From a virus (Duplodnaviria > Caudoviricetes): a DNA stretch of 64,000 nt. This document shows positions 3,042 to 62,797 of this stretch, one piece after another. Position 1 is the stretch's first letter; every line of letters starts with the position of its first letter. A program made the translations under genes and the position numbers. The stretch spans positions 1 to 64,000 of IMG/VR virus record IMGVR_UViG_3300043084_000165; one strand, 5' to 3'. The notes under the pieces were generated by a model. It made no database searches and had not been told where the DNA came from. It worked only from the letters and a program-made list of their open reading frames with translations.

Positions 3042-3057
3042 ATTGTTTATTGTTTTT

Positions 3058-3150
3058 GAAGATATATTGAGCAGAGCTCAACTAGATTCGAGTGTGCTCG
3101 AAGATATATTGGTTACCCAACTGGCTTCTGAGCTTCGCTCCGAAGATATA
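3058..3150. repeat. tandem ~42-bp hairpin units delimited by GAAGATATA
   Basis: GAAGATATA at 3058, 3100 and 3142; 3058-3092 matches 48801-48835 at 34/35 bp. Confidence 0.85.
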
Positions 3151-3194
3151 TAACAAAATCCCGCACAAAATTTAGTCATTCTGTGCGGGATTTT
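3142..3194 (-). promoter_or_regulatory. phage promoter motif embedded in a hairpin/terminator
   Basis: CTAAAT in the loop of the AAAATCCCGCACA/TGTGCGGGATTTT stem. Confidence 0.8.
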
Positions 3195-6575: not shown

Positions 6576-7756
6576 CGGTTTTGTTATCAGTAGGCTTTTT
6601 ATCCTACCTTCTGCAAGATTTCCATGCAGCCCAGCGTACCTATTCATCCTGAAAATATTCAGGAGCCCCACACTCTTGGAAGCATTATATTCCATAAATG
6701 GTTTCAGCTTCTACGCGTTACGGTGACGTCAAATATTACTTTGAACGTTTACCACGGGATTGCCTTGAGTCCAACGATTATACTTGCGAATTAAATATAA
6801 ATCAGATTTATCTTTATATAAATACTGACCGATCAAGAAATTATCCTTTTTTGAATACCACCCAGTACTCCAAACTCCGGTTCGTGGATTCTGAGAGATT
6901 TTGTTTTTAGAAACACCGAGCTTCTTTACAAGAACATTTTGTATATCCTCAACAATTTTTTTATTGCCGCAAATAGAAAATCTACCTCTTTTATCAACAT
7001 ACCCATCGCCATCAAATACCCCTCTGAGGAGGTGTGACATGTGAATGGTATCTGTTATAGTCACCGAGCTATGTTTATTAGGAATCACCCCGTATTGTGA
7101 CAAATCCTTCACCCATTCAGCTGAGTATTGAGTTATAGCTGATAAGTGGGATGTCTTTTGAACTTTTTTGCGAATCTTTGTTGTGATCCCTGTATATTGT
7201 GCGAATTTTGAAAGTATATAATCATCACTGGATTCAATCATGATTCGAACCTGATTCTTATATATATTACCATCCGATATCAACCAACCTAAAAAATAGG
7301 CCTGTGCTGGAGTATCAATAGACTTCCAAAAATTTCTTTTAAGCTCAAATGCGCCTTGTGGGTTATTACGTGCTACATTAAATTGTTTGAGTATATCGCA
7401 TATAGTCTTAACAGTTGTGTCATATAATCTTGCGATCTGACCCGTAGTCTGTCCTGACTTATAGGCTTTAACTATCTCTTGCTTCGGATACTTACTTTGT
7501 TTCTTTCTTGATGTTATATTCTTTTCTTTAAGTACATGACTGATAGTACCAATGCTCACATCATATCTTTCAGCACACTGCGCAAGTGTCTGCCCTGATT
7601 GATAATCGTTAATGATTTGAGTTTTAATATTTTCAGCCACTTTCATATGTTTGAACTTTTAGGTGTCCCCCGTATTTGCGGGGTTGTTTGCTCAGATGTT
7701 ACCATCCGAGGGAGGCCAATCTAAAACTATAATAAATATAGTTAACCGAGTGTTAA
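6576..7756 (-). mobile_element. group I intron in nrdD
   Basis: Splicing restores HSRGG/NQVVF. The 5' exon ends in U and the intron ends in G (6576). The IGS GATTGGCCTCC (7721-7711) pairs with the exon end GGAGGU (U.G wobble) and with 3' exon AAUC (P10). Confidence 0.92.
6729..7646 (-). CDS. intron-encoded LAGLIDADG homing endonuclease with N-terminal HTH repeats
   Basis: Double motifs YFLGWLISDG and LLRGVFDGDG; two HTH-like repeats at the N-terminus. Confidence 0.9.
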   Translation of the reverse strand: MKVAENIKTQIINDYQSGQTLAQCAERYDVSIGTISHVLKEKNITSRKKQSKYPKQEIVKAYKSGQTTGQIARLYDTTVKTICDILKQFNVARNNPQGAFELKRNFWKSIDTPAQAYFLGWLISDGNIYKNQVRIMIESSDDYILSKFAQYTGITTKIRKKVQKTSHLSAITQYSAEWVKDLSQYGVIPNKHSSVTITDTIHMSHLLRGVFDGDGYVDKRGRFSICGNKKIVEDIQNVLVKKLGVSKNKISQNPRTGVWSTGWYSKKDNFLIGQYLYKDKSDLYLIRKYNRWTQGNPVVNVQSNI

Positions 7757-8665
7757 ACCTCCGCGTGAGTGTATATTGTTACAATTATGAATGAAACTCT
7801 CCATCGCCTGATGAACACGATTCACTGTTCGAGCAATGATGATTTTTGCATATCCTTCAAATCGGTCTACGTCATAATCACCAATCGCTAAATCCTTGTG
7901 CTCGCGAATCTTCGCATCATCCCATCCCAACACTTCGGCGATTTTTTCCACTTCCTCCTCATATGTCTTGCGGACATAAGGTGCCATGTAAAAGTCAAAC
8001 GCAGGAATTGCCTGACCTCCGTGCTGTTCGTTCTGGGTGGTTTCCAGTGAGATAGCAGCAACAATCACAGCCGTCTCAATGCGCTTGGCGGGACGGATCT
8101 CTCCGTGACCTGCATAAAGCCCTCCTTCAAGGAGCTTGTTGAGAGGAGTCTGTACACATGTAGTGCTCTTAGTGGGGTAGTAGTCGAGGTCATGAACATA
8201 CATGTAATTGTCATTCATCGCCTGTCGAATGTTGGGTGCAAGGAAGTACTGCTTTGAGAACGGCTTAGTAAGCTCTCCGGCAAACTTCATCATCATGCCT
8301 GCGGGTGATTGGGCTGACATGTTTGCGTTGTCTGTGGTGATGTCGTTCACCTCCACGTTCACAATAGACATGATGTCCTGCGATTGCATCTTAGCACGTT
8401 GCTCCGCTCTCATGGCGCGATAGCCTGAAAAATGCTTATAAATGTCACGATGGCCACATGAAATCAACAGATCCTCAATTTCGTCCTGGATGCGCTCCAC
8501 TGTAGCAAGCGTCTTGAACTTGTTGATGTTCTGATTGAGAATGACACGGAATGTGGCTGGGCACTTCTTACCACAAGACTCAAAAGCGGAATCTACCGCT
8601 TTGTAAATCTTCTCCATGTCGAAAGGCACCTGATGGCCCGATCGTTTTCGGATTTTTGAACTCAT
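7757..8665 (-). CDS. nrdD: anaerobic ribonucleoside-triphosphate reductase, exon 1 (ATP cone)
   Basis: ATP cone (IRKRSG...FDMEKI), NANM, HDLDYY, TCVQ, QNEQHGGQ; spliced product is 752 aa. Confidence 0.95.
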
Positions 8666-12004: not shown

Positions 12005-13807
12005 TTATTCTTCTTCAGAATTTTTCTTTTTCTTTTTCTTTTTGCGAGCAATGTGCGCTTTGATGGCGAGTTTCTCATCTTCTGCAAGATTGGCAATCAT
12101 AGATTCAAGAGACTCATTTGACATATCATACGAATCATCACCACCCGCGAGGTGTAAGTCATCAAGCTCCTCTTGTTTGTATTTTTCATTCAGAGCCAAA
12201 TCCTGTGGCGAAAGTTTCAAGTATTTTTCTACCAGGAACTTAGATGCAAAAAACTTAACATCATTACCCTCAGCATCCATATCAACAAGAGCTTCCTTCA
12301 TCTCTGTAATGTGTTGGACACGTTTAGACATGAGCTCTATGTTCATAAGTTCCTCAAACACATTGTAGGACTTAAACTGTAGCGATACCGATTCAAGAAT
12401 CTCCTTCTGCTCCAGCAGCTCAGGATGCATCACAGCAAGCTGAAGCTGGAGCGGCTTGATCATCACTTGCGCAAAGATGTTTCGCATGCGCGTTACAAAA
12501 CGGGCAAAGTCTATCTCCACACGAGCCACTGATGTAGCATCCGAACCAAACCAGGTCTCACCTGATTCCTGATCAAAGCGTGACAGCGGAATCTTAGAGA
12601 TCTTATAAAGCTGGTTCTTGAAGTACTTGAGCTGATCATTATCTGCCAGGTCAGGACCTTCGCCGCCCAGCGTTTCGATCTGAGGCGATCCCGAATCATT
12701 CTCTGGCAACCAGTACTCTTTGTTGAATGGTAGGTTTGTTTGGCCATTGATAGAAAGCTCACCAGTATCCGCCTGGAACTTAATATCTTCTTTATATTGA
12801 TTCATGGCCATGTTCAGCGTTTGCATACCAGTCGCTCTGTTCATACCTTTCACAGGAATGGTGAAGCGCATTTTATAAGATGCATTGGTGATGGTCCAAA
12901 TCAGCTGGGCTTGCTCAATGATACGATATATATTGAACGGGCGAATCAGACGTTCGAGATATGACTGACGAGTGATGGCATTGGTCTCCTGATATGCTAT
13001 ATATATCACCTGTGAGTCCAGTAGCTTACGCTCTTTGCCCGACATTCCTTTGAACTGCACCCAGTACCATTTGTTATTATCAAACTTTTTGGTAAGTGTG
13101 GCTGCGTCAATGGGCACCAGGCCAATGATGCGCTTAGGTTTCTCCAGTGAGTCCCATACAATCTCCCAAGCTAATTCACCCTCGATCAGCCAACGCTTAT
13201 AATCATCCCAGGCACGGTACTTCCAGTTCAACATCTTATAGAAAGTTCTGAATGATCGCGAAAGGTCGTCCTTGAGCTGTTTGCGAACTTTGGGCTTGAG
13301 GTCCTGCAGCTCTTGAATCTCTATGAATGGCTCACAGAAGTAGGTGTAGTCCTCATCATATACAATAGACTCATTAGTCATAGTATCCAGGATGTCTTCA
13401 AGCTCAGGCTGACAGGCCAGGTTGCGAAGCGCTTCGCGTTTCTGTGGAAATGTCTTGCTGAAAAAGTCCTGGTCCTTGTTAGACTTAACCTTCCAGTTGC
13501 TCGCTGCCATGGTGAACAGATCCTGGTTGGTCAGCTGAAATTCTTTCGGAAGCAAAGACTTATCTGCAGGGATGGCGCGCATATTATCAATTACCTGGTC
13601 CTCATAGCGCATACCAAAGCGAGACATCTCTGAAAAGAACTTTGCAATAGTTCGTTTGGTCTTAGGCTTGCCTGGGGAGTTTGAGTAGTGGGGTCTGAAG
13701 TTGGTAGTCTCTTTCATGCCTGGAATGGCCGAGGGGGACATCTCATCTATACGGCGACCCTGCGCATCATAATCAAAAGTATTTGGTTGGTATGTTTCTG
13801 TTACCAT
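12005..13807 (-). CDS. portal protein (T4 gp20-like)
   Basis: gp20-like segments: PELEDILD.MTNESIV, WLIEGE, SYLERLIRPFN, EYWLP...IETLGG, YF...LYK...IP.SRF, EIDFARFV.RMR. Confidence 0.88.
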   Translation of the reverse strand: MVTETYQPNTFDYDAQGRRIDEMSPSAIPGMKETTNFRPHYSNSPGKPKTKRTIAKFFSEMSRFGMRYEDQVIDNMRAIPADKSLLPKEFQLTNQDLFTMAASNWKVKSNKDQDFFSKTFPQKREALRNLACQPELEDILDTMTNESIVYDEDYTYFCEPFIEIQELQDLKPKVRKQLKDDLSRSFRTFYKMLNWKYRAWDDYKRWLIEGELAWEIVWDSLEKPKRIIGLVPIDAATLTKKFDNNKWYWVQFKGMSGKERKLLDSQVIYIAYQETNAITRQSYLERLIRPFNIYRIIEQAQLIWTITNASYKMRFTIPVKGMNRATGMQTLNMAMNQYKEDIKFQADTGELSINGQTNLPFNKEYWLPENDSGSPQIETLGGEGPDLADNDQLKYFKNQLYKISKIPLSRFDQESGETWFGSDATSVARVEIDFARFVTRMRNIFAQVMIKPLQLQLAVMHPELLEQKEILESVSLQFKSYNVFEELMNIELMSKRVQHITEMKEALVDMDAEGNDVKFFASKFLVEKYLKLSPQDLALNEKYKQEELDDLHLAGGDDSYDMSNESLESMIANLAEDEKLAIKAHIARKKKKKKKNSEEE

Positions 13808-14002: not shown

Positions 14003-14992
14003 TTATCGTCCTGTATACGGAGATCTCAACCACTGGCCGACAATTTTATTTACAGCTGGCACCCATTTTGCCTTCTGTGGTGATGACCAAAAAGAGGTTC
14101 CAACAGATTGCATTAGTTTTGAGCTGCTGTACCAACTGTCAAGCAACCCCTCCAACTGCTTCTTGACTTCATCATACCACTCTACTGTGACCTTTTTCGC
14201 ACTAACGAAATCATATACCTTATGTGCAAGAGCCTCTTTAGTTGGAGATCCGGTACGGGTGAATCCAAACCCATCCAGCAGGTAACGCGGGCGCTGCTTG
14301 TTTGGATCGTCCCAAGTCTTAATAGTGAGGTAGAAGAAACGGCGATCATCTACAAGATACTCCAAGTCATATATGTGCTCATCAATCTTGCAGCCTGCAA
14401 CACTTGAATATGTGTTTTTGAATACGCGGTGGAAGACATGATAACCCAAGTCTGAATAAACACCTGAGATAGAGTCGGCATCGGCCCCGATCTTGTACTT
14501 ACCGCCATTGGTAATTATCTTCTCAAAGTCCTTAGTGAATGTATCAAAGTCTACTGGGGTCTCAGTATCACCGTTCAACACACCCTCTGTGATCGGTGTA
14601 AGAGTGTCGCGGAGATGCGCACTGAGACGCAACAGACCACTTTCGGTGAGGTGCTTGAGCTTATATATAGTAGAATCAATTTGTGACAGTACATCATCGC
14701 AGAGTGATTCAAGCTCGGAGGAGCCGAGTAGCTTGCGGCCTTCTTTGGTAATATCTTTTAGTTTTTCAAGATACTCAAGAGCATCCAAACCCTCGTCCAA
14801 GATATTCTTGTAATCTTTAACTATGTCATTATCAGCCTGATAAGCCTCGATGAGCGCATCCACCTTTTCAGGCATTTCTTTATAGAACTCATCCAGAGCC
14901 ATGTGGCCCGAGTACTTATCAGTTTGTAGGTGCTTACGCCATTCTGCAGTAATGGACTCCTGAAGCGTACCAAAAAATTCAGATATTGTCAT
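14003..14992 (-). CDS. ferritin/Dps-like (DUF5856-like) N-terminal domain fused to an unknown domain
   Basis: H.QT..Y..H.ALDEFY......D.LIE.YQ pattern, with the domain ending YKLKHL. Confidence 0.6.
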   Translation of the reverse strand: MTISEFFGTLQESITAEWRKHLQTDKYSGHMALDEFYKEMPEKVDALIEAYQADNDIVKDYKNILDEGLDALEYLEKLKDITKEGRKLLGSSELESLCDDVLSQIDSTIYKLKHLTESGLLRLSAHLRDTLTPITEGVLNGDTETPVDFDTFTKDFEKIITNGGKYKIGADADSISGVYSDLGYHVFHRVFKNTYSSVAGCKIDEHIYDLEYLVDDRRFFYLTIKTWDDPNKQRPRYLLDGFGFTRTGSPTKEALAHKVYDFVSAKKVTVEWYDEVKKQLEGLLDSWYSSSKLMQSVGTSFWSSPQKAKWVPAVNKIVGQWLRSPYTGR

Positions 14993-15071
14993 TTTTCAAA
15001 AATGTATACATTTTCTCTAATAATAAAAAGAGGACCAACCGGGTCCTCACACACAGCGCACACTTGTGCAC

Positions 15072-15431
15072 TTATTTATTTACCAGTGGATACCAGTCGA
15101 ACAACATGCAAAGTGTAAGTTGGGAAGTGCCCTGGATGTCTACAAAGACAATCTCATCACCGGGCTCTGGAGCGTCACCGTTCAATTCTTCCAGGTAATC
15201 CTTGACGCGATTCAGGTCACCGGCCTCAAAAGGGAGTGCTTTGCGACCGTACACAGCCTCAGCGTGCTCTTTAGCACTTTTGAAGCTCAGGTAATTATCC
15301 ACAGTGAACGGATTGCCCACGATAATGCCATAATTACCACGTTCGTCCTGTGCGGGACAGAGATGATTCTTCACAGGCAGCGCACCACCAATTCGACCCT
15401 CATTTGTGATTGATTCTTGCAATGACTTCAT
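15072..15431 (-). CDS. putative internal head protein (capsid-targeting-like N-terminus)
   Basis: Starts MKSLQESITNEG. Confidence 0.6.
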   Translation of the reverse strand: MKSLQESITNEGRIGGALPVKNHLCPAQDERGNYGIIVGNPFTVDNYLSFKSAKEHAEAVYGRKALPFEAGDLNRVKDYLEELNGDAPEPGDEIVFVDIQGTSQLTLCMLFDWYPLVNK

Positions 15432-15432
15432 A

Positions 15433-16260
15433 TCAATTGTAACAAGCTATGATTGAGCGCGCATTTTCAAACCACTCCTGTGGAGTTAGGTCATCAAAAT
15501 TGCGGGCAAATACTTTATTGTTTTTATCGCGGCGCAGCAGTGCCTGCCATTTCTTGTCATCTGAGTCAAGAGAGAAGTAACGAGCAAATTTGCGGAAGTA
15601 CAGATCACCAAGACCCTCACCGTCCAGCAACTTAGCCAGCATATCGTTCTCTATTTTGATACCCTCATCAAACTTTGTCTCTATGATCACAGTAGTACCT
15701 AGCGCAGCGCCTATGATCTTACCCTCAAACACATGCCAGTGCTCACCAACCACTCTACGTGAGCAGTTCATGTTTTTGGCGATCTCTTCAAGTGAGCGAG
15801 CCTCCAGACAGCTCTGCACATCACCCAACTGAGCCACTGGCTGTGGGATTCGAGATTCACTGGTTGTGTAGCAAGCACATGTGCAATCGCAGGCACAACA
15901 CTTCCCGTCATCCGCTATCTGCTCCACGAGCTCAATAGCCATCTGACCATTCACTGTGGTGATGTTGGGGTGAAGGTTATTGGCACTCAAGAACTCGGAG
16001 AGTGAGTAGTAACCGGATCCGCGGAAATTTGCATTGCCGATGCTACTTGCATAGAGCAAATTGTTCCACTTCTTTGCATCCAGGGTACCAGTGATAACAC
16101 GATGTCCCTCGGTAAGAGTCATGTGAGTGTCAGTCAGTGCACCCCAAAAATTGTTATATGTTCTGCAGACTGGGCATGGGATGGTTTGTTCAGATCCCAC
16201 TGGAGTGTGATGAAATGATGCCACACCAGCTGCGACAAGTTCAGAGAATTTGTTATACAT
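15433..16260 (-). CDS. hypothetical protein with a Cys-rich segment
   Basis: 275 aa; contains CPVC and CCACDCTCAC. Confidence 0.7.
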   Translation of the reverse strand: MYNKFSELVAAGVASFHHTPVGSEQTIPCPVCRTYNNFWGALTDTHMTLTEGHRVITGTLDAKKWNNLLYASSIGNANFRGSGYYSLSEFLSANNLHPNITTVNGQMAIELVEQIADDGKCCACDCTCACYTTSESRIPQPVAQLGDVQSCLEARSLEEIAKNMNCSRRVVGEHWHVFEGKIIGAALGTTVIIETKFDEGIKIENDMLAKLLDGEGLGDLYFRKFARYFSLDSDDKKWQALLRRDKNNKVFARNFDDLTPQEWFENARSIIACYN

Positions 16261-16262: not shown

Positions 16263-16520
16263 TTATTCTTTATCTTTGTTACCCGGAGCGAATGACTTGT
16301 TGAGCATGCCGATGAGCTCACCCCATTCACCCCTTTCTACCAACTCTTTATTATCGTCCAACAGACCATCAATGGTCTTGTTCATCTTGTCCTCATCGAG
16401 TTCATCACCAAACACCTCTTCAAACTTTGCACGAGCTGCTTCGCGGAAATCCTTCTCAGACTTGATTGTTTCGTTGGCTTCATTGAGTGATTCGTTCAGG
16501 AATTCAGTAAGACTTTTCAT
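16263..16520 (-). CDS. small acidic putative head/prohead-core protein
   Basis: Starts MKSLTEFLNESLNEA; Glu/Asp rich. Confidence 0.65.
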   Translation of the reverse strand: MKSLTEFLNESLNEANETIKSEKDFREAARAKFEEVFGDELDEDKMNKTIDGLLDDNKELVERGEWGELIGMLNKSFAPGNKDKE

Positions 16521-16831
16521 TTTATATTACTGTTATTTTTAATCGTTTGAACCAAGGAGTGATTGGTGCTAACAGCATTGTCCAATGAACTTTGCATGAT
16601 TCCCTTCACCTCTTGCAATGAATTTATTTTGGTATTAAGTATTCTGATAGAATCTTCTGCTGTGCGCAAATCGCTTTGCAGTCCTGAGATCTCGTTGCGA
16701 ACAGAGTCTACATACTCTGTATGGGCAGCCTTCTCAAATTCAAGTTGACGACGACCTGTGCAAGAGCGGCAGGATTGAATGAGCAACAAAAACCCCAGAG
16801 CTGCAATGAGCGGATATTGGTAATTTTTCAT
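16517..16831 (-). CDS. membrane or lipoprotein coiled-coil protein
   Basis: Hydrophobic N-terminus ending IQSC, followed by a heptad repeat. Confidence 0.6.
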   Translation of the reverse strand: MKNYQYPLIAALGFLLLIQSCRSCTGRRQLEFEKAAHTEYVDSVRNEISGLQSDLRTAEDSIRILNTKINSLQEVKGIMQSSLDNAVSTNHSLVQTIKNNSNIK

Positions 16832-16861
16832 ATGTTAAATGCTTTGTATCAATATACTCTC

Positions 16862-18232
16862 TCAGGGTTTGTATTTTAGATAGCAATCGCTCACAGAAAC
16901 TAGGTTTTCAATCAAGTCACCATCAGTCCACGTGCCTGGCGCTGTCGGCACCATGTGGCGCATAAATTTCTTATATATATCAGAATGAGCACGCAGTGAC
17001 GAATCAATAGTGTTAAAACCGCCACTAAGTGCTTGATTTAGAATGCCTTTCTCCTTGTCACTCAACTGCCCAACAGCATATTTGTATGACTTAACAAAAG
17101 CGTCACGTGACGACCACTTAGTGGTGTCTTCAAGCAATATATATACATCGTCACATGCGAACGTCTCAACAATCTGTTCTTTAGTGAGACCATGCATGTT
17201 GCGCATCAGTGACTCAGTATAGATGTTGAGGATATCCAACAGCATGTCGGTGAGCTGTTTGTTGCTCTTGATGAACTTGATGATCTTCTTAATCACCGAG
17301 TTCTGAATGTTACCCTCAGACATGCCATAGGATTTTGCAATGTCCTTAGACTTCTCCTTCGTGCGGCCGTTGATACCGAAGAATCTATAAAAGATATCAG
17401 TATCGCGTTGGGTAAAGGTTTTGTCTAGTACATTATATAGTTTCTTCCACTTAGAGTCATCGTCACGGTCACGATCTTCAGCACCTATATAACTCAGATG
17501 ATCCAGGTCATCCAAGTTGTCCAGTGAAGCTGCATCCAGTGACGGACCTTCTCCATCGCGTGACTTTTTAGTAGCATACCAGTTAGTGCCCGACAAGGTG
17601 TGTGAATACTCATCCATGTCGTTGAGGATCTGCTGACGGATTCTATAACCTGCATAGGTCTTAAATGAAACAACCTTGCCACCGTTCTCATCCGGTTCAC
17701 GCTTCCAATCGTTCATAGCATTAGCCAACCCCAACATTCCCGCAGAAATGAGTGATGACTTATCCAGTGACGACTTATCCTTAAACTGATTAACAATGTG
17801 CAGCACCAGTGGGGTATAAAGCTTTGATACTGCGTTGCGACCTGTCTGTGACTCCAGGTCAATAGTTGCATCATCCAGCGCCAGCTGCCCCTTCTCAATC
17901 AATTCACGTTCAGAAGCTGAAAGATACTGCGGCATGACCTTGTAGTTCTGCTTGATAGTCTTCATCAAGTTCCACAAGTCCTCCAAGTCACCCTGCGGGA
18001 TGTTATGCTTTCCAGACAGATCTTTAAGCTTTGATTTATTGGCTGTTCTGATCTCATCCAGCACCTCACGCGAAGTGATATCATACTTTGAAGTGATATA
18101 TATAGCTTTCTGCACATCAACCGGAAGGGACTTCTTGAGCTTGTTGACATACTGCGTGATGTCAGTCTGTAATAGATTGACAGCATCTCGATCACCACGG
18201 CCTTCGCTAATTATCTGACTAAATTTCTTCAT
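16862..18232 (-). CDS. sigma-70-family-like factor with N- and C-terminal extensions
   Basis: Region 2 (LISAGMLGLANA...SFKTYAGYRIRQQI) and region 4 HTH (RDTDIFYRFFGI...KDIAKSYGMSEGNI); N-terminus MKKFSQIISEG. Confidence 0.8.
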   Translation of the reverse strand: MKKFSQIISEGRGDRDAVNLLQTDITQYVNKLKKSLPVDVQKAIYITSKYDITSREVLDEIRTANKSKLKDLSGKHNIPQGDLEDLWNLMKTIKQNYKVMPQYLSASERELIEKGQLALDDATIDLESQTGRNAVSKLYTPLVLHIVNQFKDKSSLDKSSLISAGMLGLANAMNDWKREPDENGGKVVSFKTYAGYRIRQQILNDMDEYSHTLSGTNWYATKKSRDGEGPSLDAASLDNLDDLDHLSYIGAEDRDRDDDSKWKKLYNVLDKTFTQRDTDIFYRFFGINGRTKEKSKDIAKSYGMSEGNIQNSVIKKIIKFIKSNKQLTDMLLDILNIYTESLMRNMHGLTKEQIVETFACDDVYILLEDTTKWSSRDAFVKSYKYAVGQLSDKEKGILNQALSGGFNTIDSSLRAHSDIYKKFMRHMVPTAPGTWTDGDLIENLVSVSDCYLKYKP

Positions 18233-18340
18233 CTAATAAAATATATTTGTGCAACTGAAAATTTGCACGTTTACTTAATACTATAATCTCCCAAAACGAA
18301 TATGATATCAATAGAAAAATAAAAACAGAGCACATCAAAA

Positions 18341-20262: not shown

Positions 20263-22053
20263 ATGAATATCCCTAACCTGGAAGAGCTTGACTCGCCAAA
20301 AAAGAAAGGAACTCTCTATATAAAGAAACATTATCCTGAATTTCATCAATACATTTTGGATACTTATCCACACATCAACAAGTTCAATGCTGGTATATAC
20401 TTATATTACCGCCACATGGATCATCCCAAGTGTCCAGTTTGTGGAGGTTATGTTCCATTCTTAGATGAGACCCGTGGCTTCCAACGATGCTGCTCAAGCA
20501 AATGTGCTAATTCTGACCCTGAGTTTCGTAAGCGGGTCACAGAAACATGTCTTCGCAAATACGGCACAAAGACCCCGACTGAGAATCCGGAGATCAAAAA
20601 GAAAGCTATGAGCACATATATAGCAAATAATGGAGGCATGGGTAACGCGTCACAGTCGGTTGCGGCCAAGCAGAAAACTACCATGATGGAGCGATATGGT
20701 GCTGAGCATGCACTGCAGTGTGGCCAATTTATCGATAAAGCAAAGACGGTGTTGACTGAACGCTATGGTGGTATGGGTACGGGGTCTAAAGATATAAGAT
20801 CGCGCATTGAAAAAACCAATGTAGAACGTTATGGTAGTAGGAGTTCGTTTGGTTCAAAAGAAGTCCGCGCCAAATCAATCAAAACCAATATTGAAAAGTA
20901 TGGGTGTGAAATTGCATCTCAAAACCCAGAGATAGCAGCCAAGGTATCCAAGGCCAAATCAAAGTCATTCATTGATTTACACTCTGATATAATCAAGATT
21001 GATAAAATTGGTGAAAATGTAATGTACACATGCGAATGTCCCCATCCAGGTTGTGACCGATGTGAGGAAAAAACTTATATAATCAACGCGCGTCGTTATT
21101 GTAACAGAAAACTTGAAGGGACTGAGATGTGTACTCACATTCTGCCAGTGATTCAGGGACGAATAAAAAATACTTATCCTGAGATATTTGTACGAGGTGT
21201 GTTAAGTGAAATCATGCCTGAGATTCAGTTATCATTCAACAATCGCACCCTGATAGAACCCCAAGAGGTGGACATCTATGACAGGGCTCATGGATTAGCA
21301 TTTGAATGTAATGGTTGTTATTGGCACTCAAAAAAGAGTCCATCTTATCACAAGCAAAAATTCTTACAATGTCAGCAAAAAGGCGTGCAGCTGATGACCA
21401 TATGGGAAGATTGGATAAAGACCAAACCTGAAATTGTACGATCGATCATTCGCGCAAAGTATCACCATTTCGACAGGACTATATATGGTCGCAAATGTGA
21501 ACTTAAACCGGTTCAGTCCAAAGATGCAGCTGTATTTTTAGAAGCAAATCATATACAGGGTCAGACACGGGCTAGCGTGCATTATGGTTTATATAACAAC
21601 AACGAGCTTGTTGCACTTGCATCCTTCTCAAAGATGCGTGGGTGTATGGGATCACAGACCTCACGTGAAGGCCAGTGGGAACTAGTACGTTTTTGTAATA
21701 CCCTGAACACGCAGGTTATTGGCGGTGCTGATAAGTTACTTAAGCATTTTATCAAAGACTATAACCCATCATCTATAGTATCGTTTAGCTCAAATGACAT
21801 TAGTGATGGTTCTCTTTATAAACGATTGGGGTTTGAAAAGGGATCTATGAATTCATCCTACTGGTATATAGGGCACAATTATCGCAGATATCACAGATCC
21901 AACTTCACCCGAGCAGCTATCATAAAACTAGGCCTTGCGCCTGACCGCGAGCAATGGACCGAGACAGAGGCTATGATGGAACACGGATTTGTTCAAATAT
22001 ATGACTCAGGACAAACCAAGTGGGTACTACAAATAAAAAGGGAAGACCAGTAA
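20263..22053 (+). CDS. free-standing homing-type endonuclease (Zn finger, RYG repeats, Vsr/PD-(D/E)xK nuclease, GNAT-like C-terminus), paralog 1
   Basis: CPVCG, repeated T..ERYG, EVDIY...AFECNGCYWH, FLEANHIQG, ELVRFC, YKRLGF, IYDSG..KW. Confidence 0.75.
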   Translation: MNIPNLEELDSPKKKGTLYIKKHYPEFHQYILDTYPHINKFNAGIYLYYRHMDHPKCPVCGGYVPFLDETRGFQRCCSSKCANSDPEFRKRVTETCLRKYGTKTPTENPEIKKKAMSTYIANNGGMGNASQSVAAKQKTTMMERYGAEHALQCGQFIDKAKTVLTERYGGMGTGSKDIRSRIEKTNVERYGSRSSFGSKEVRAKSIKTNIEKYGCEIASQNPEIAAKVSKAKSKSFIDLHSDIIKIDKIGENVMYTCECPHPGCDRCEEKTYIINARRYCNRKLEGTEMCTHILPVIQGRIKNTYPEIFVRGVLSEIMPEIQLSFNNRTLIEPQEVDIYDRAHGLAFECNGCYWHSKKSPSYHKQKFLQCQQKGVQLMTIWEDWIKTKPEIVRSIIRAKYHHFDRTIYGRKCELKPVQSKDAAVFLEANHIQGQTRASVHYGLYNNNELVALASFSKMRGCMGSQTSREGQWELVRFCNTLNTQVIGGADKLLKHFIKDYNPSSIVSFSSNDISDGSLYKRLGFEKGSMNSSYWYIGHNYRRYHRSNFTRAAIIKLGLAPDREQWTETEAMMEHGFVQIYDSGQTKWVLQIKREDQ

Positions 22054-22147: not shown

Positions 22148-23488
22148 CTACTTACCGAAATCTTCTGACTTGATGCGCACACATTTTGTCTGCATGTCTT
22201 TATACTTCAGGTCAAATCCGGTATTGTCAACAACAACCCATACTAGGTTCTTCATAGTGCGCGGATTGCGTTTATATTGATCCAGGTAACCATCGGTGAA
22301 GATCATCAGTAGCTCAGTCGGGATACGTGAATATTTCTTATCCTTGAGCAACATGTCAAAGACAGGCTTCACATCAGTACCGCCACCACCTTTGATGGTG
22401 TAGTTGTGCATGTCTTTTTTGAGCTGAGCCAGCGATGTAAACTCCTGCACATCAGCTACTCGAGTATCAAACTGCATGATAACAAGACGAATCGGTTTCT
22501 TTGCAAGAGCTACCTGATAAATCTCATTCAAACACTGCTCCAGGTACTTCTGTGTCATAGAACCCGAGGTATCAATAGCGGCTACCATATAACTCATGTT
22601 ATCATACTTGTCCTTGTCAGTACGCGCAATGCGGTCCTGTGAGATTAGGATGTTTTTATTTGCATAAGCTGAGCGTTTGTCATCGGGTGAGATACACTGC
22701 CCTACAATCTTTTTGAGCTCTTTTTTCCAGTCTTTGGTGGTTTTATATAGACCATCCAGACGCGCCTTGAGCTTCTCATAACCTTCACCCTTACCTTGCA
22801 TCTGCGATGCTGCGCGGAGCGCGCGTTCTTGCCATTCTTTTGCGACAGAATCCTCATTACCACCGTCAGCATCATAACCCTCAGACTTAGCAATCTTGTC
22901 ACCAGTCTGACGAGATATCATACCACCAGCAGCTCCAGGGGTCTTATCAAGCTCACCACCACTGGGCTGTGCACAGTCTTCGGGGCGAACAACTCCCTGA
23001 CCGGATTGCTTACCATTGCGGCTTCTGCCACTTGAACCACCTGAGCCTGAGCCCTGTGATTTACCTTGCTGGTTCTGATTACCCGAACCACCTGATCCGG
23101 ATCCACTCTGCTGATCGCCTTCCTGATCGTCCGGATCCACAGGGATACCTTCTAGTCCATCATCAGAACCTGCTCCTGCGCCGCCACCTTGTGACTTACC
23201 TTTATTCTTCATGGCCTTTTTGATGGCCTCGATGGCTGCTTTATAACCTTCATCCCAGTCCTTGCCTGCCCCGGCCGGTCTTTTGGTTGGACCCGTACCG
23301 TTAGATGTGGGTGCAGGACCAGCAGGCGCACCACCCTCGATTTCAGCAAGCTCCTTGTCAATCTCAGACACGTCTTTACCCTTTGCCAACCACTCCTTAC
23401 GTTTCTGTTTTAGAGCCGCGCGGCGCTTCTTCTGCTCCGGTGTAAGGTTCAATGAAGCTTCTGCTATATAATCTGAAAAACTTTGCAT
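22148..23488 (-). CDS. vWA-domain protein (DUF2201 C-terminal-like)
   Basis: MIDAS motifs DTSGS, GGGGT and FTDG; Gly/Ser/Gln-rich linker; N-terminus MQSFSDYIAEA. Confidence 0.85.
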   Translation of the reverse strand: MQSFSDYIAEASLNLTPEQKKRRAALKQKRKEWLAKGKDVSEIDKELAEIEGGAPAGPAPTSNGTGPTKRPAGAGKDWDEGYKAAIEAIKKAMKNKGKSQGGGAGAGSDDGLEGIPVDPDDQEGDQQSGSGSGGSGNQNQQGKSQGSGSGGSSGRSRNGKQSGQGVVRPEDCAQPSGGELDKTPGAAGGMISRQTGDKIAKSEGYDADGGNEDSVAKEWQERALRAASQMQGKGEGYEKLKARLDGLYKTTKDWKKELKKIVGQCISPDDKRSAYANKNILISQDRIARTDKDKYDNMSYMVAAIDTSGSMTQKYLEQCLNEIYQVALAKKPIRLVIMQFDTRVADVQEFTSLAQLKKDMHNYTIKGGGGTDVKPVFDMLLKDKKYSRIPTELLMIFTDGYLDQYKRNPRTMKNLVWVVVDNTGFDLKYKDMQTKCVRIKSEDFGK

Positions 23489-23493: not shown

Positions 23494-24213
23494 TTATTTT
23501 ATTTTTCCAGCCTTGTAGTCAGCAATTGCCTGAGCCCAACCGGCCTTGTAGTCAGCTGAATATTCAGGTTTATTATCACCACCTGAGCCTGAGCCCTGGC
23601 CATTATCACCATCTCCATCTTCACCGTCCTGGTTCTGCTGAGCCTGTTTGGCCTGATCATCATTACTCATGTCATCACTGGAACCCGAGTTGCAAATGTC
23701 ATAAATCTTTTCAAAGCCCATGTCCTTGAATTTCATGTCGATATAGGCTTTGAGATTTTTCACCGTGGACTCTTTGAATAAGCCAATGGATACAAGTGTG
23801 GTGTTCACCTCATAGTCTGCTGCGATGTTTGACTTAGTATGGTCACGGCCTTGTTCGCGGCGTAGGTGGTTCATCAGACAGTGCATGAGCTCATGGGCCA
23901 TTACGAAACACTTACCAGTGAAATCCAGGTTGGCCGTAAACTGCGGGTTTACAAAGATGTTGAAGCCATCAGTTGCCTGAGAAAAAACCTTAAACGTGTA
24001 AATGTATCTTAGCTTACTAATAAATCCACCAAACATCGGGGCAAGGTGGGTGAGCGCGGCCATAGCTTTGTATTGCTGGTCAATCAAATCCACCATGTCG
24101 ATTATCTGACCATCCGGACACACTATGGTTTCATAGTCTTCCCATTTCTTACCGTTAGCATCCTCATCCCAACCGGATTCCAATACCTGTTTTACTATCT
24201 TGTTATCTTCCAT
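23494..24213 (-). CDS. HExxH metallopeptidase-like protein (DUF2201 N-terminal-like)
   Basis: ATDG..I.VNP.F, AHELMH, NIAADYEVN; ATG at 24213. Confidence 0.85.
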   Translation of the reverse strand: MEDNKIVKQVLESGWDEDANGKKWEDYETIVCPDGQIIDMVDLIDQQYKAMAALTHLAPMFGGFISKLRYIYTFKVFSQATDGFNIFVNPQFTANLDFTGKCFVMAHELMHCLMNHLRREQGRDHTKSNIAADYEVNTTLVSIGLFKESTVKNLKAYIDMKFKDMGFEKIYDICNSGSSDDMSNDDQAKQAQQNQDGEDGDGDNGQGSGSGGDNKPEYSADYKAGWAQAIADYKAGKIK

Positions 24214-24383: not shown

Positions 24384-25091
24384 TTAATCAATCTTATCAA
24401 CTATAACACGATCAATGTTGTTGAGCTTCTTAAATGTTCCGTTTGCATCATCTACATAGTTATTAGTCATGGCTGGGTCATCAAATGATCCCACCATTAC
24501 TGTGTTGAGATGGCATTCTTTTGCATGAATGCCAAGCTTATCAGTGAAGACCTGAATCCAGGGGCGATGGTTACGAGTGGACAAAGTCACTGTGCCGATT
24601 TTAGCATTAGGGAACTTGATTTTGCAAGGTACGTTTTCTGCGCCACCAGGAACAGACCATCTGCCGAACTTATAAGGTCTCTGTATCTTTACATCATTAT
24701 GTGATGAGTCGCTGGTGAATACTTCAAGTCTGTCAAATGGGATTCGTTTATAGAATGCATCAAGATCGACAGAGTCCTGGGCGCATGCACGAACGAGCAC
24801 GTCCTTAGGTAGGCTTGAGCCGCGCGACATCAGTTTTTCTATGTCATCTTCATCCCAACTGCCATCGGTTTGGATAGCAACTACTTTAGAGAAGTCAAAT
24901 TTTGCATCGGCAGGACATTCACTATAAATGCTCTTTGATGATTCAGTGAATACTAGCGCAGTACAGTAAATAGTGCCGGCTTTAGCTGTTGCATAGGTAC
25001 CCATCCAAGCGCTCCCATACTGTTTATATTTACGACAATATGCTGAGATCTCTTTGGCACCTTCAGTGAGATATTGGTAGAGCGAAATCAT
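24384..25091 (-). CDS. hypothetical protein with capsid-targeting-like N-terminus
   Basis: Starts MISLYQYLTEG. Confidence 0.7.
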   Translation of the reverse strand: MISLYQYLTEGAKEISAYCRKYKQYGSAWMGTYATAKAGTIYCTALVFTESSKSIYSECPADAKFDFSKVVAIQTDGSWDEDDIEKLMSRGSSLPKDVLVRACAQDSVDLDAFYKRIPFDRLEVFTSDSSHNDVKIQRPYKFGRWSVPGGAENVPCKIKFPNAKIGTVTLSTRNHRPWIQVFTDKLGIHAKECHLNTVMVGSFDDPAMTNNYVDDANGTFKKLNNIDRVIVDKID

Positions 25092-25651
25092 TTAATATAC
25101 TTAGCATATTTAGGAGCAATATCTATCATGACTTTATCACCATCGCTCATTTCCCATTTTCGTGGATTGATAGCCCACTTGAATCGTTGAGCATATGCTA
25201 TGATGTCCTCAACAGGTGTGGGTGACGTGAAATTGTCCAGTCGGATTCGTCCGTTGCGTTTGAATACTATAAAAGTCTCATCGCAACTATGCCGGTCGCC
25301 ACAGGATATGTTCAAGTCTGTAAACATCTTGTCCAGGTCTTCCCATATCACCCTGAGATTCTTTAACATGGTAATAGTGTCATCCGAAGGCACACCCCAA
25401 ACTCCGCGCATGCTTGCGATGCGGCTGGCGAGTTGAGCCTTGAGATCGTTTGAAAGTTTATCCGAACCGCAATTCTGTTCCATGCAGGCTAGTACAGCAT
25501 CTGAGAAATTCTTGAGCGGTATTGCGCTGATGTGGTAGTATGCATCAAACCAGGCCTTGAATTGTTGGTTCTTGAGGTTTGGCATTTCCACACCCAGGTC
25601 CTCATTATCTATATCTAATATGCCTTCAAAAAGGTGTTGTAGAGAGTTCAT
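25088..25651 (-). CDS. hypothetical protein with capsid-targeting-like N-terminus
   Basis: Starts MNSLQHLFEGILD. Confidence 0.7.
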   Translation of the reverse strand: MNSLQHLFEGILDIDNEDLGVEMPNLKNQQFKAWFDAYYHISAIPLKNFSDAVLACMEQNCGSDKLSNDLKAQLASRIASMRGVWGVPSDDTITMLKNLRVIWEDLDKMFTDLNISCGDRHSCDETFIVFKRNGRIRLDNFTSPTPVEDIIAYAQRFKWAINPRKWEMSDGDKVMIDIAPKYAKYIK

Positions 25652-25667: not shown

Positions 25668-27395
25668 TCAATTATAATTGCGAATCCATTTTGTTGTGCC
25701 TGTATCATATATTCTAAAATATGGCTTTGTGTCCATAACTTCATACTCAGTACCGTCACAGCTTCCATATTTTTTTACAATGGCTTGTTTAGTAAAACTA
25801 CTTCTGTGATAACGCACAAATGTATTATGTTCTATGTACCAATATGATGACTGAATGCCTGGGACTTTTTCAAAACCCAAAACTTTATACATATTTCCGT
25901 CACTAATGTCATTTGAACTGAATGATACTATAGTTGTGGGTGAATAGTCTTTTACAAATCTCTTTAATAATTTACTCGCTCCCCCGATGATATGAACGTT
26001 CATTAACGAACAAAATCTCGTCAATTCCCACTCCCCCGTTGATGATCGATTTACAATACCCTTTCGTTGACCAAAACTCATAACAGAAACTAGTATATCC
26101 TGTTTATATAACCCAATATATACTGCAGATCTACATGGACCTTGTATGTGATTTTGCGCCAGAAACTTATTTGCAACCCGGCTTGTTATATATTTTACCT
26201 GACATTTTCGCGCATATATAGAGGGGGTGCTGTGGGATAATTTTGTCACCAACATAGATTTGATCAGCTCAGGATTATGTCTATACCAATCCTCCCATAT
26301 TGTGATCAATCGAATCCCATTTTCCAAGCATCTTTTATATTTATCCACATGATACTGTCGCGGTTTTGAATATTTGAAATGGAAATTAGTTTGATGCCAA
26401 TAGCACCCATTACATTCGATGGCTATATTCAATGATGGGATGTATATATCAAGTTCTTGTCCTTGCAATATTGTTCTATCATTTGTTTGATAGGATATTT
26501 CAAGATCATCCAAAATGTCTCTTATAAAAAGTTCCATAGAAGAATATGGAGTGCTTTGAATGGGGAGGAGATTTGTGCACAATTCTCCTCCGGTTTTTAG
26601 ACGACTTCTATATATTTGAGTTTGTGTTATATATTGTTTTTGTTGACATTTGTTGCAATTTGGATGAGGACACTTACATATCCAATCACCATCGGGGGTA
26701 TAACCTATTAAAAACTCGTGTTCATCTACAACATGTGATTGAAATTTGAGTTTATTGTTCATCTTAAATTTATCTGTGGCAAATATATTAGTTTTGCCAT
26801 AATGGTCTAAAAATGTTTTATTTTTTCTTTCCTGGATGATTGTTAATTTAGACACATTATCTACACCATAACGTTCAAGACATGTATTGCGTGCAGCTTC
26901 TCTGTTGTTATAATTTACATCTCCATAACGTTCAAGACACGTTTGTTTGCCCTTTTGTCTTATGGATTTTACCTTAAGTGTGCTATCTACGCCATAACGC
27001 CCAAGACATGTTTGTTTGGATTTTTCAGGGTTGTTATAATTTACATCCCCATAACGTTTCAACTTAGTCTGCTTTACCTTCCGTATTATCTCTTCATTGG
27101 TGTAATTAGAGCGTCTTGTTTGTAATGCTTTATCATGTGTGGCTAATGAGCTACAACGAACTGAACAGTATTCGCGAAATCCATTGGTGAAATCTATGAA
27201 TTTGGGTTCAGCCCCACACAGCGGGCATGGTTTAGGCCCACCTATTAAATCTCTATATAATTTTTCCGAGAATTTTGATCCAGTTTGATATTTTTGTTCA
27301 AGGTACTCAAAATACTCAGGAAATGCCTTCTGAATATGCAATCTCCCAAGTCTATTTACATTTTCTCTGAGATAATCTATATTTGGTTTGTCCAT
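25668..27395 (-). CDS. free-standing homing-type endonuclease, paralog 2
   Basis: Same architecture as paralog 1 (CPLCG, TCLERYG repeats, ELDIYIP...IECNGCYWH, NHIQG, ELTRFC); noticeably AT-rich. Confidence 0.75.
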   Translation of the reverse strand: MDKPNIDYLRENVNRLGRLHIQKAFPEYFEYLEQKYQTGSKFSEKLYRDLIGGPKPCPLCGAEPKFIDFTNGFREYCSVRCSSLATHDKALQTRRSNYTNEEIIRKVKQTKLKRYGDVNYNNPEKSKQTCLGRYGVDSTLKVKSIRQKGKQTCLERYGDVNYNNREAARNTCLERYGVDNVSKLTIIQERKNKTFLDHYGKTNIFATDKFKMNNKLKFQSHVVDEHEFLIGYTPDGDWICKCPHPNCNKCQQKQYITQTQIYRSRLKTGGELCTNLLPIQSTPYSSMELFIRDILDDLEISYQTNDRTILQGQELDIYIPSLNIAIECNGCYWHQTNFHFKYSKPRQYHVDKYKRCLENGIRLITIWEDWYRHNPELIKSMLVTKLSHSTPSIYARKCQVKYITSRVANKFLAQNHIQGPCRSAVYIGLYKQDILVSVMSFGQRKGIVNRSSTGEWELTRFCSLMNVHIIGGASKLLKRFVKDYSPTTIVSFSSNDISDGNMYKVLGFEKVPGIQSSYWYIEHNTFVRYHRSSFTKQAIVKKYGSCDGTEYEVMDTKPYFRIYDTGTTKWIRNYN

Positions 27396-44855: not shown

Positions 44856-45587
44856 TCACTTTTCGAGGAGACTTGCCATTGCTTCGCATATGTCTTCGTT
44901 TGATTTAATATAATCCAGTACCTTCTTGATGCGCTGAGAGATACGACCCGAGGTTACGTTCAGTTCTGCTGCGAGCTCAGTTACTTGCTTCTCCGGCACT
45001 CCACATACTCCGAAGAATGAGTAGAAGCAGTATGCATCAGTGGCGTTGCAATGAGTATCAACCTCGGTCTTCAACAGTTCCATCGGGTCACCGTCTTCAA
45101 ACTTCGCGCTCTCATACACACCGTAGCGCATCTCGCGATTCATATTCTCGTTGTCACCTGCGGGGTTCATCACTGCTGAGATGCTCACCGTGGTGAATGT
45201 GGTAGCGCCAATGCCAGGAGCCGCATTTTCGCATACCTCAGCGTCAGCAGCTACATCAGCCTGAGTCTTCTTGATCTGCTCCTGTGTATAGCTGGTCAGC
45301 TTCACTGTGTGGAGCTCTGTGCAAGAGCAGTTGCGGATGTTGTTCAGCATTGCAAACGCAGCGAACTGAGTGAAGTTCATCTGTGAGCGTTCAGGATCGT
45401 ATGTATTCATCGCGATAGTCAGACCTTCGTAAGCCATGGACTTGAGTGTGTACCAATCGGTCTTGAGACGACGGTGCCACTGCGAAACAATCTTGTTCAC
45501 CAGCGGCTCGAATTGACGAGCGATCTGATTGCGAACTTCTGCAGGTGCTGCAGCAAATGACTGACGGAGATTTGTAATTGCTTCCAT
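44856..45587 (-). CDS. sigma-70-family-like factor (compact, regions 2+4)
   Basis: AYEGL..A...YDPER...FT.FA (region 2); ELAAELNVTSGRISQRIKK (region 4 HTH). Confidence 0.85.
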   Translation of the reverse strand: MEAITNLRQSFAAAPAEVRNQIARQFEPLVNKIVSQWHRRLKTDWYTLKSMAYEGLTIAMNTYDPERSQMNFTQFAAFAMLNNIRNCSCTELHTVKLTSYTQEQIKKTQADVAADAEVCENAAPGIGATTFTTVSISAVMNPAGDNENMNREMRYGVYESAKFEDGDPMELLKTEVDTHCNATDAYCFYSFFGVCGVPEKQVTELAAELNVTSGRISQRIKKVLDYIKSNEDICEAMASLLEK

Positions 45588-45624: not shown

Positions 45625-45674
45625 GAAGATATATAACAAGAGCCCCTCAGAAATTTAGTCTGAGAGGCTCTTTT
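45625..45674 (-). promoter_or_regulatory. phage promoter motif embedded in a hairpin, upstream of the compact sigma gene
   Basis: AAGAGCC.CTCAGA/TCTGAG.GGCTCTT stem with an AATTTAG loop. Confidence 0.8.
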
Positions 45675-47572: not shown

Positions 47573-47610
47573 ATTTTATAAGTTGTTATTTCAATATAGG
47601 CAAAAAGTTT

Positions 47611-62017: not shown

Positions 62018-62797
62018 ATGAAATCCTTATACGACTATATAAATGAAGCGCGTGAGCTGCTGGGTGCTCTCCCATTCACTCGAGAACAATTCAAAGAGTA
62101 CTTGATTGCCGCAAGTGACTATGATGATGAGAGCGAGATTTGGCAGTTCATGGAGCGTACTATCACAGATACTTATGGCGAAAAGGCATGGTCTGGATTT
62201 AAGGGTTGGTGTGAAGGTAATGCTTATGGCTCTGACGCAGATGAGTTATATAACATCCTCACCAAACTCCCCAAAAACCGCATTGCCCGAGTACTGGGTG
62301 CTGGATCTTTTGGAGCTGCCATAGAGATTGGTGATAATAAGGTTTGCAAGCTGTTCCATAAAAATACTCCCATGGAGTCTAAAGATATTAAATTCTATAA
62401 GTATTGCAAAAGTCACAAATCTGATGTATTCCCTCGTGTGTTTAAGTTGGGTTCGAACTTCATAGTTATGGAGAAGCTCAACCTGAACACCGATAAGTGC
62501 AAGCTGTATAATAGCTACTTGGGTATGTCGCCAAAAATCAAATTTGATGGGATCTGCATGGAAAAATTGTTAAAAGGTATACGCAGTCCCAGCATCATTA
62601 CAAAACGAGATTTTCAGAAGTATACTAAACTTGTAAATGCGCTCACCGCAGAGCAGAAAGAGGTATATCACTGGGGTTGGACGATCCTGGATGGCCTGAA
62701 AGAAGCCATTGGTAGTGATGATAGCTTGTTGGACCTGCGTTTGGCAAACATCGGCGAGCGTGTTGGTAGTGGTGAAATTATATTCTTCGATATATAA
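62018..62797 (+). CDS. protein-kinase-like protein with capsid-targeting-like N-terminus
   Basis: LGAGSFG, VCK, VMEKL, catalytic loop DLRLANI, IFFD; starts MKSLYDYINEA. Confidence 0.75.
   Translation: MKSLYDYINEARELLGALPFTREQFKEYLIAASDYDDESEIWQFMERTITDTYGEKAWSGFKGWCEGNAYGSDADELYNILTKLPKNRIARVLGAGSFGAAIEIGDNKVCKLFHKNTPMESKDIKFYKYCKSHKSDVFPRVFKLGSNFIVMEKLNLNTDKCKLYNSYLGMSPKIKFDGICMEKLLKGIRSPSIITKRDFQKYTKLVNALTAEQKEVYHWGWTILDGLKEAIGSDDSLLDLRLANIGERVGSGEIIFFDI

Follow-up and report, generated by a model that had tools for sequence, protein, structure and literature searches.

The capsid targeting sequence of bacteriophage T4 is the short leader MKTYQEFIAE (PMC8442874), and the prohead protease gp21 cleaves after L/I-x-E (PMC9026906). 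In the IPIII leader, amber-suppressor mutagenesis showed that targeting depends on residues 4 and 7, and processing on residues 8 and 10; Alt, a protein delivered from the head, is already known to retune the host RNA polymerase (PMC9026906). Here we describe sigma 1, the product of a gene in a 64,000-nucleotide stretch of viral DNA (Duplodnaviria; Caudoviricetes; IMG/VR record IMGVR_UViG_3300043084_000165), for which sequence comparison gives good support that it is a sigma factor and that it bears a tag of the T4 type for head loading and processing. This stretch, hereafter the window, covers the opening 64 kb of a viral contig of 91.7 kb (the record), whose completeness is estimated at 56%, giving a genome of about 160 kb. 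The main comparison genome, G001, is a 158.6-kb relative whose sigma 1 is 45% identical; the set of related records comprises five, of which three are 97-100% complete. The gene and its leader are placed as follows.

16862..18232, minus strand: sigma 1, a 456-residue sigma-70-family protein with an N-terminal leader, identified from PHROG 351, homologues and fold matches
18203..18232, minus strand: leader MKKFSQIISE (residues 1-10), predicted cut after Glu10 (between ISE and G), kept in 113 of 119 homologues

The likeness to the T4 internal proteins IPI-IPIII and Alt lies in a leader of about ten residues with hydrophobic residues at positions 4 and 7, Ile or Val at 8, Glu at 10 and then a small residue. 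The head is also comparable, with a T4-type portal and capsid protein here and a gp21-family protease in relatives. The differences from T4 are the cargo, a sigma factor where T4 loads small basic proteins or an ADP-ribosyltransferase, the much larger number of tagged proteins, and packaging that is so far a prediction from sequence. A precedent for a sigma factor in the virion comes from Salmonella phage Arash, for which the Gp10 sigma was detected in the proteome of purified particles with 24 unique peptides, alongside beta and beta' subunits that the phage itself encodes (PMC10585845). Arash thus packs its own RNA polymerase, whereas the sigma 1 clade, which has no detectable polymerase, would need the host core enzyme. 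No T4-type leader was noted in that description of Arash, a distinction drawn from the description and not from the sequence of Gp10 itself. The virion RNA polymerases of N4, phiKZ-like and crAss-like phages offer a second parallel, in that the first promoters are not of the host type and the factor needed to read them arrives in the particle; what these phages deliver is a complete polymerase, whereas here it would be the specificity subunit only. Finally, the polymerase-less jumbo phages of group 2 have gp23-type heads and encode RpoD-like and minimal sigmas whose presumed role is redirection of the host polymerase (Iyer et al. 2021, PMC7824862), and a 2026 review states that jumbo phages without a polymerase encode sigmas probably using the host enzyme (PMC13282480). 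The searched passages of these two papers hold nothing on a leader, processing or packaging of the jumbo-phage sigmas. Our literature search returned no paper linking a capsid targeting sequence with a sigma factor, and none describing sigma-only injection by a phage dependent on the core enzyme of its host.

The leader is deeply conserved. Across the 119 full-length homologues, Phe is found at position 4 in 111, Ser or Thr at position 5 in 116 and Glu at position 10 in 113, with Leu, Phe or Ile at 7, Ile or Val at 8, and Ala, Ser or Gly at 11 in 92. The consensus start reads M, [KNDR], [NK], F, S/T, x, L/F/I, I/V, x, E, A/S/G, R, K, N, and variants with an insertion or deletion retain I-L-E or I-x-E. 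The positions conserved in the family (4, 7, 8 and 10) are exactly the four that were mapped in T4 IPIII. When 23 sigma 1 sequences are aligned, the strict cut-site pattern L/I-x-E is present in 14 and the looser hydrophobic-x-E in 22. Long family members carry the leader in 79 of 93 representatives of 50%-identity clusters, versus 2 of 23 small relatives built of domains 2 to 4. The codons at the leader positions vary, both between orthologues and between tagged genes, and it is therefore the peptide that is constrained, rather than the DNA or a mobile cassette.

Behind the leader, sequence comparison and structure prediction confirm sigma 1 as a genuine, conserved member of the sigma-70 family, divided as follows (pI, isoelectric point; pLDDT, predicted local distance difference test score).

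17894..18184, minus strand: N-terminal helical domain, residues ~17-113, from the AlphaFold model; pI 9.1, conserved family-wide
17603..17884, minus strand: sigma domain 2, residues 117-210, from VIA-align superposition and FliA alignment
17468..17599, minus strand: acidic linker replacing domain 3, residues 212-255; pLDDT <50 at 212-219 and 228-255, pI 4.3
17264..17458, minus strand: sigma domain 4, residues ~259-323, from alignments to holoenzyme sigmas; sigma 2 (described below) matches residues 257-341
16865..17260, minus strand: C-terminal helical domain, residues 325-456, containing YTE340, IVE356 and LLE368; pLDDT 77 when folded alone

Sigma 1 matches PHROG 351 'RNA polymerase sigma factor' with an E value of 2.4e-13 over residues 82-328. 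Its sequence match in the PDB is to region 2 of FliA (E 3e-3), where L-I-S-A-G-M-L-G-L and F-K-T-Y-A-G-Y-R-I-R align to the motifs for core binding (2.2) and -10 recognition (2.3/2.4), giving the patterns L-I-x-x-G-x-x-G-L and F-x-T-Y-A-x-x-R-I-R. Pfam returned no match below E 0.01 for the window copy, domain 4 included; PF04542 is found in several homologues. In the AlphaFold model (mean pLDDT 73), residues 117-210 superpose on domain 2 of sigma70, RpoS, SigE and SigA with a VIA-align Z score of ~13 and a root-mean-square deviation of 1.3-1.8 Å over 76-87 residues, and alignments to holoenzyme sigmas cover residues 118-323, through domain 4. All of the 50 Foldseek matches listed are sigma-factor chains. 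The protein thus has domain 2, in both fold and motifs, and a domain 4 helix-turn-helix, and is without domain 3. Group 4 sigmas likewise have no domain 3, so its absence is no bar to membership of the sigma-70 family. The best sequence match of domain 2 is to FliA (sigma-28 type), and with this and other group 3 and 4 sigmas sigma 1 shares an arrangement of domains 2 and 4 joined by a linker. Unlike them, it adds conserved N- and C-terminal domains of ~100 and ~130 residues that have no recognised fold, plus the leader. Protein-atlas searches with these two domains gave scores of at most 0.84 and were uninformative; the C-domain folded alone had a best PDB match at Z 5.1, which is noise level, and its only viral match was a homologous phage sigma. 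A weak likeness of the C-domain to sigma domain 4 or to NarL helix-turn-helix folds, with Z scores of 4-4.7, is not above noise.

The family is large. More than 475 homologues at E <1e-3 were found in 90%-identity clusters, mostly of 450-480 residues and several of them on contigs of 130-210 kb, and a profile search retrieved 655 representatives of 50%-identity clusters at E <1e-3, 115 of them below E 1e-30. Members occur in animal-gut samples. Throughout the family, domain 2 keeps its core-binding and -10 motifs and domain 4 its helix-turn-helix, and a subfamily of 390-424 residues lacks the C-domain and keeps the leader. The ORF23 sigma of Chryseobacterium phage MA9V-1, considered as a tagged relative, was set aside: it starts MSTENFLSYVYSKSINE, which is only loosely similar, and does not belong to the sigma 1 family.

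A preliminary description of this DNA had recognised both sigma regions 2 and 4 and a leader resembling a capsid targeting sequence. The former is borne out by PHROG 351, the FliA alignment and the AlphaFold superpositions, and the latter by the match at the four T4 positions mapped by mutagenesis and by its deep conservation. The same description proposed a second cut site, IYTE-S (residues 337-341), after region 4, which we do not retain as a protease site, as position P3 is Tyr, not Leu or Ile, in 23 of the 23 aligned sequences and the motif lies within a predicted helix. IVE356 and LLE368 fit the T4 cleavage rule better, yet they too are inside a folded domain.

The tag extends beyond sigma 1. 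A regular expression for the leader matched 8 N-termini in the 91.7-kb record, where its internal frequency predicts 0.62, and 15 in G001, where 1.57 are predicted; this is an enrichment of about tenfold at protein N-termini in both genomes. The portal, the tube-like protein and the probable sheath of G001 (called by size and N-terminus only) are without the tag. The major capsid protein starts MNSKWSQIIKE-E, a version shifted by one residue.

A protease suited to such a leader is encoded by the relatives. Peptidase_S77, the family of T4 gp21, scores above the Pfam cut-off in four of the five related records, including all three at 97-100% complete, and forms the N-terminal part of a protein of ~480 residues whose repetitive tail is probably scaffold-like. 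RNA polymerase beta and beta' domains (Rpb2_6, Rpb1_2) were not found in G000-G003, three of which are complete, in a search that was positive for 14 of 14 control genomes and that very divergent polymerases could escape. As no phage RNA polymerase was found in the relatives, the host core enzyme must therefore be used.

Two classes of promoter-like motif bear on when sigma 1 is made and what it might read.

44856..45587, minus strand: sigma 2, a 243-residue sigma-like protein without a leader; Pfam Sigma70_r4 E 8e-4, PHROG 351 E 9e-7
45633..45658, minus strand: CTAAAT-N13-TTGTTAT promoter-like motif upstream of sigma 2, from motif counts against shuffled sequences
18280..18287, minus strand: ATTATAGT, a promoter-like motif of the head-gene class 55 nucleotides upstream of the sigma 1 start; the same variant stands before the capsid gene
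18249..18268, minus strand: inverted repeat GTGCAA-N8-TTGCAC between this motif and the sigma 1 start codon

The first class, CTAAAT-N13-TTGTTAT, has seven exact copies and one with a single mismatch on the minus (coding) strand of the window, a count reached by 0 of 100 shuffles. It extends to TTGTTATATATCTTC, and the class can also be written CTAAAT-N13-TTGTTATAT. The same bipartite motif is present with the same spacing in G001. On our own reading it would be a sigma-70-type promoter with CTAAAT as -35 element, a 17-bp spacer and an extended -10 element, TGnTATAT (TGTTATAT). The genes behind it here either have no assigned function or belong to nucleotide metabolism and DNA modification. 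The -7 box of Bacteroidota is TAnnTTTG (PMC7366714). Upstream of genes this box is at chance level (7 versus ~5 expected in the record and 10 versus ~12 in G001, expected from site density), and the CTAAAT motif was rejected as a Bacteroidota -33/-7 promoter since no register fits. Behind several CTAAAT-type promoters, the leader region repeats hairpin units of the form ATATATCTTCGAGC...GCTCAATATATCTTC (2754-3175 and 47940-48914 in the window; 69775-70275 in the record).

The second class, ATTATA[TG][AT] or TTATTAT[AT] at about -25 to -55, is rare, with 47 sites on both strands of the record, and lies at -70 to -9 of 14 genes, where ~1.7 are expected. Among them are the genes for the portal and the major capsid protein, those for two large proteins of structural type, the tagged gene starting at 62018 and sigma 1 itself. 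Orthologues of sigma 1 have TTATTATA or a similar word at about -30, and in G001 the motif precedes the genes for the portal, protease, tube-like protein, probable sheath and capsid as well as sigma 1.

It had been proposed earlier that sigma 2 lies directly downstream of the CTAAAT-N13-TTGTTAT motif, as part of a two-sigma cascade. The placement holds in both genomes, with sigma 2 on the minus strand here. The number two is probably incomplete, as the relatives carry three sigma-like genes: the tagged one of ~460 residues, a small one of ~220-243 and a third of ~400-434. The third is found at 63026-64219 of G001 and also in G002, G003 and G005; none was seen in the 91.7-kb record, and it may lie in the missing part of the genome.

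We propose that sigma 1 keeps a domain 2 that binds core enzyme and reads the -10 element and a domain 4 that reads the -35 element, and that it is built as capsid cargo. It would be transcribed with the head genes from a promoter of the ATTATA type, presumably late in infection. The ten-residue leader would carry it into the scaffolding core of a T4-type prohead, where a gp21-type prohead protease would cleave it after Glu10 (I-S-E-G). The mature protein of ~51 kDa would be kept in the filled head and enter the next cell with the DNA, there to bind the host core RNA polymerase and start phage-specific promoters. The likeliest of these are the promoters with CTAAAT at -35, 17 bp and the extended -10 TGTTATAT, which would drive the nucleotide-metabolism and DNA-modification genes and sigma 2. 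Packaging, cleavage, ejection, late timing and the choice of promoters by sigma 1 are all steps that we infer, and they are not equally secure. Sigma 1 is likely to be packaged in the head; its injection, and a role in starting the early programme, are plausible as predictions; and the full chain, in which sigma 1 is packaged, trimmed, injected and starts phage transcription, we put at somewhat short of an even chance.

Several points weigh against this chain. Peptidase_S77 was not found in the 56%-complete record itself, either by profile or by tblastn with the protease of a relative. With 15-23 tagged proteins per genome, far above T4, the meaning of the tag may be broader, and the tag-like N-terminus of the capsid protein may simply be the start of its own propeptide. 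The 'late' timing of sigma 1 is deduced solely from a motif common to structural genes, and no link singles out sigma 1, as against sigma 2 or 3, as the reader of the CTAAAT class. The host is ambiguous, the bins of metagenome-assembled genomes (MAGs) with sigma 1 matches being split between Parabacteroides and Clostridia despite the Shine-Dalgarno signal described below. A tblastn search with sigma 1 against 50,697 deposited phage genomes gave no match and so no cultured relative. Finally, a sigma made late could act in the cell that produces it.

This last point leads to the best-surviving alternative, in which sigma 1 is an ordinary middle or late sigma of the producing cell, perhaps reinforcing the head-gene class, and the N-terminal peptide serves stability, translation start or a common partner. 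Late-gene phage sigmas are well known (T4 gp55; jumbo phage group 2), the sigma 1 gene is itself in the structural-gene promoter class, and its packaging is a deduction from sequence. In genes without Shine-Dalgarno sites the N-terminal coding sequence could matter for initiation, but what is conserved in the leader are amino-acid classes specified by varying codons, and these fall on the same four positions that function in the T4 leader, after which comes a small residue. Nor do the distribution data favour an ordinary sigma, as the small sigma relatives are without the leader and the tag is on a minority of genes that leaves out the portal, tube-like and probable sheath proteins. We regard this explanation as unlikely, while allowing it a substantial share of the probability.

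Alternatively, sigma 1 could be packaged and trimmed without being the early initiator, and might instead be an internal protein of the head, associate with the DNA, or serve as a decoy for the host core polymerase or host factors. Most T4 internal proteins are not transcription factors (PMC9026906), roles other than those of a sigma are conceivable for the N-domain, which is basic (pI 9.1), and for the unexplained C-domain, and the assignment of promoters to sigma 1 is a deduction. Conservation of the core-binding and -10 motifs in domain 2, and of the domain 4 helix-turn-helix, nevertheless argues for real promoter recognition. We consider such a role improbable, and equally so its counterpart that the early promoters are read by the host holoenzyme or by another factor.

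N-terminal pro-sequences on sigmas have precedents in pro-sigma E and pro-sigma K of Bacillus sporulation, which are trimmed by dedicated membrane proteases of the SpoIIGA or SpoIVFB type. A checkpoint of this kind, in which a leader ending in a protease-type site keeps sigma 1 inactive until an assembly-dependent protease removes it and so couples late expression to head assembly, is very improbable here, because the T4 gp21-type protease acts inside the prohead core (PMC9026906), so that the cleaved sigma would probably be trapped in the head, and because the same leader is on many proteins that are not sigmas.

Sigma 1 as a packaged and injected initiator could also be one arm of a closed relay. 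No phage promoter would then be readable by unmodified host holoenzyme; sigma 1 from the virion would turn on the CTAAAT class, sigma 2 (with sigma 3) made from that class would turn on the head-gene class, and the latter would yield new sigma 1. We think this possible, though on balance doubtful.

Sigma 1 is the first of five tightly packed genes running from 18232 down to 15072, with the portal gene further along the same strand.

16517..16831, minus strand: second operon gene, 104 residues, with a lipoprotein-like signal and no family match (open reading frame list)
16263..16520, minus strand: third operon gene, 85 residues, leader MKSLTEFLNE-S (open reading frame list)
15433..16260, minus strand: fourth operon gene, 275 residues, variant N-terminus MYNKFSELVAAG; adjoins sigma 1 in G001
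15072..15431, minus strand: fifth operon gene, 119 residues, leader MKSLQESITNE-G, one residue longer (open reading frame list)
15030..15048, minus strand: terminator-like hairpin closing the five-gene operon
12005..13807, minus strand: T4 gp20-type portal, no leader, ATTATATA motif at -33; Pfam Portal_T4 E 1.7e-72

Two distant relatives (P0132 and P0147, of 747 and 752 residues) have in-frame fusions that join sigma 1 to homologues of operon genes three and four, with BLASTP E values of 1e-20 and 7e-14 between fusion partners and operon genes. The fusion junctions read V-L-E-S or I-N-E-N. Judged from the sequences, these fusions tie sigma 1 functionally to its operon partners, and they would fit polyprotein processing at hydrophobic-x-E sites. 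The preliminary description had placed sigma 1 among portal-linked genes with the same type of N-terminus; tagged operon neighbours and a portal are indeed present in the window, and the linkage is not conserved in G001.

Further tagged genes are found elsewhere in the window.

22148..23488, minus strand: VWA-domain protein, leader MQSFSDYIAE-A on an extra N-terminal stretch of ~77 residues (Pfam DUF2201/VWA)
24384..25091, minus strand: 235-residue protein with leader MISLYQYLTE-G, function unassigned
25088..25651, minus strand: 187-residue protein with short leader MNSLQHLFE-G, one residue shorter, function unassigned
62018..62797, plus strand: 259-residue protein, leader MKSLYDYINE-A, ATTATATA motif at -26

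By this comparison the tag is modular, because the VWA protein is tagged here and its 353-residue orthologue in G001 is without the leader. The G001 orthologue of 62018-62797 retains a leader, MKDIKDFLFE-R, behind a short repeat. Pfam and PHROGs were almost entirely uninformative for the other tagged proteins (DUF285, VWA and a weak DUF5591). A candidate leader, MTISEFFGTLQE of 14003-14992, was rejected: the orthologue is without the Glu, and the segment is probably part of a DUF5856 domain.

Several further observations concern the tag. The VWA-like gene stands in an operon with a DUF2201_N metallopeptidase gene (23494-24213) behind a CTAAAT promoter, and of the two only the VWA protein is tagged. 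A 474-residue protein at 50980-52404 starts MYDISEYLWN, which is tag-like with Asn in place of Glu; its G001 orthologue has the full tag MKTLQDFILE-Q and a weak DUF5591 match. In T4, Asp at position 10 of the leader stops cutting and not targeting. In G001, moreover, at least six paralogous proteins form a family (loci L014-L021; for example 16708-17406, 47084-47800, 56726-57496, 92939-93166, 98347-99096 and 110917-111672) that have about 22 N-terminal residues in common, MKNIKEYINESLFD-EDDLLDK, beginning MKNIKEYINE. This N-terminus consists of the tag and an acidic stretch, and the remainder of each protein matches no known family.

The T4-type character of the head rests on the gp20-type portal and on a Gp23-family major capsid protein (81.5 bits) at 82511-84268 of the record, outside the window. 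The nearest cultured portals, at 30-39% identity, are those of Sphingomonas phage PAU, Tenacibaculum phages PTm1 and PTm5, Chryseobacterium phages MA9V and the Prevotella Lak phages, which places the phage nearer to the PAU/PTm1/Lak group than to T4 itself. The PAU, PTm1, MA9V and Lak phages make up 'group 2.2' of Iyer et al. and are not T4 proper (PMC7824862). A Shine-Dalgarno core is found upstream of 2 of 92 genes here and 6 of 153 in G001 (~2-4%), and the 17 nucleotides preceding start codons are 46-50% A in the record and G001. Near absence of Shine-Dalgarno sites is typical of Bacteroidota. A Bacteroidota host is favoured because these sites are nearly absent, and the host is likely to be a gut or rumen member of that phylum. 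The sigma 1 profile searched against bacterial genomes found only two short MAG contigs, one binned as Parabacteroides (buffalo caecum) and the other in a Clostridia MAG. A search of bacterial genomes with the NrdD piece gave no match and no host clue.

NrdD itself, an anaerobic ribonucleotide reductase encoded on the minus strand of the window, is divided between an N-terminal piece (7742-8665, with the ATP-cone and the start of NRDD) and a C-terminal piece (5226-6695), between which lies a LAGLIDADG/helix-turn-helix open reading frame (6729-7646); G001 has a single NrdD gene of 798 residues. Similarly, the open reading frames at 60084-61922 and 57479-58429 (minus strand) both match one 905-residue protein of G001, with a 539-residue frame (58468-60087) between them; by this match, a large gene at 57479-61922 is split by an insertion. 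A multi-copy family of 530-600 residues has three members in the window (20263-22053, plus; 25668-27395, minus; 42535-44121, minus), all matching PHROG 3339/559 ('homing/HNH endonuclease'); the run of tagged genes is broken up by two of these copies. More copies lie in the record at 70798-72483, 78958-80688 and 80720-82405, tied to the others via common G001 homologues only. This is an unusually large expansion of an endonuclease-like family for a single phage.

Phages are known to start infection with the host holoenzyme, with an injected complete RNA polymerase, or with an injected modifier of the host polymerase such as T4 Alt. Sigma-only injection, if true, would be a fourth and very economical way. 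The leader might in addition be put to use as a transferable tag by which proteins are loaded into phages of this kind. As the sigma 1 family is large in animal-gut samples, the mechanism, if true, bears on how abundant uncultured phages of Bacteroidota take over their hosts, and, should the closed relay hold, injection of the specificity subunit alone would be enough for a widespread group of phages of the gut and rumen to take control of transcription.

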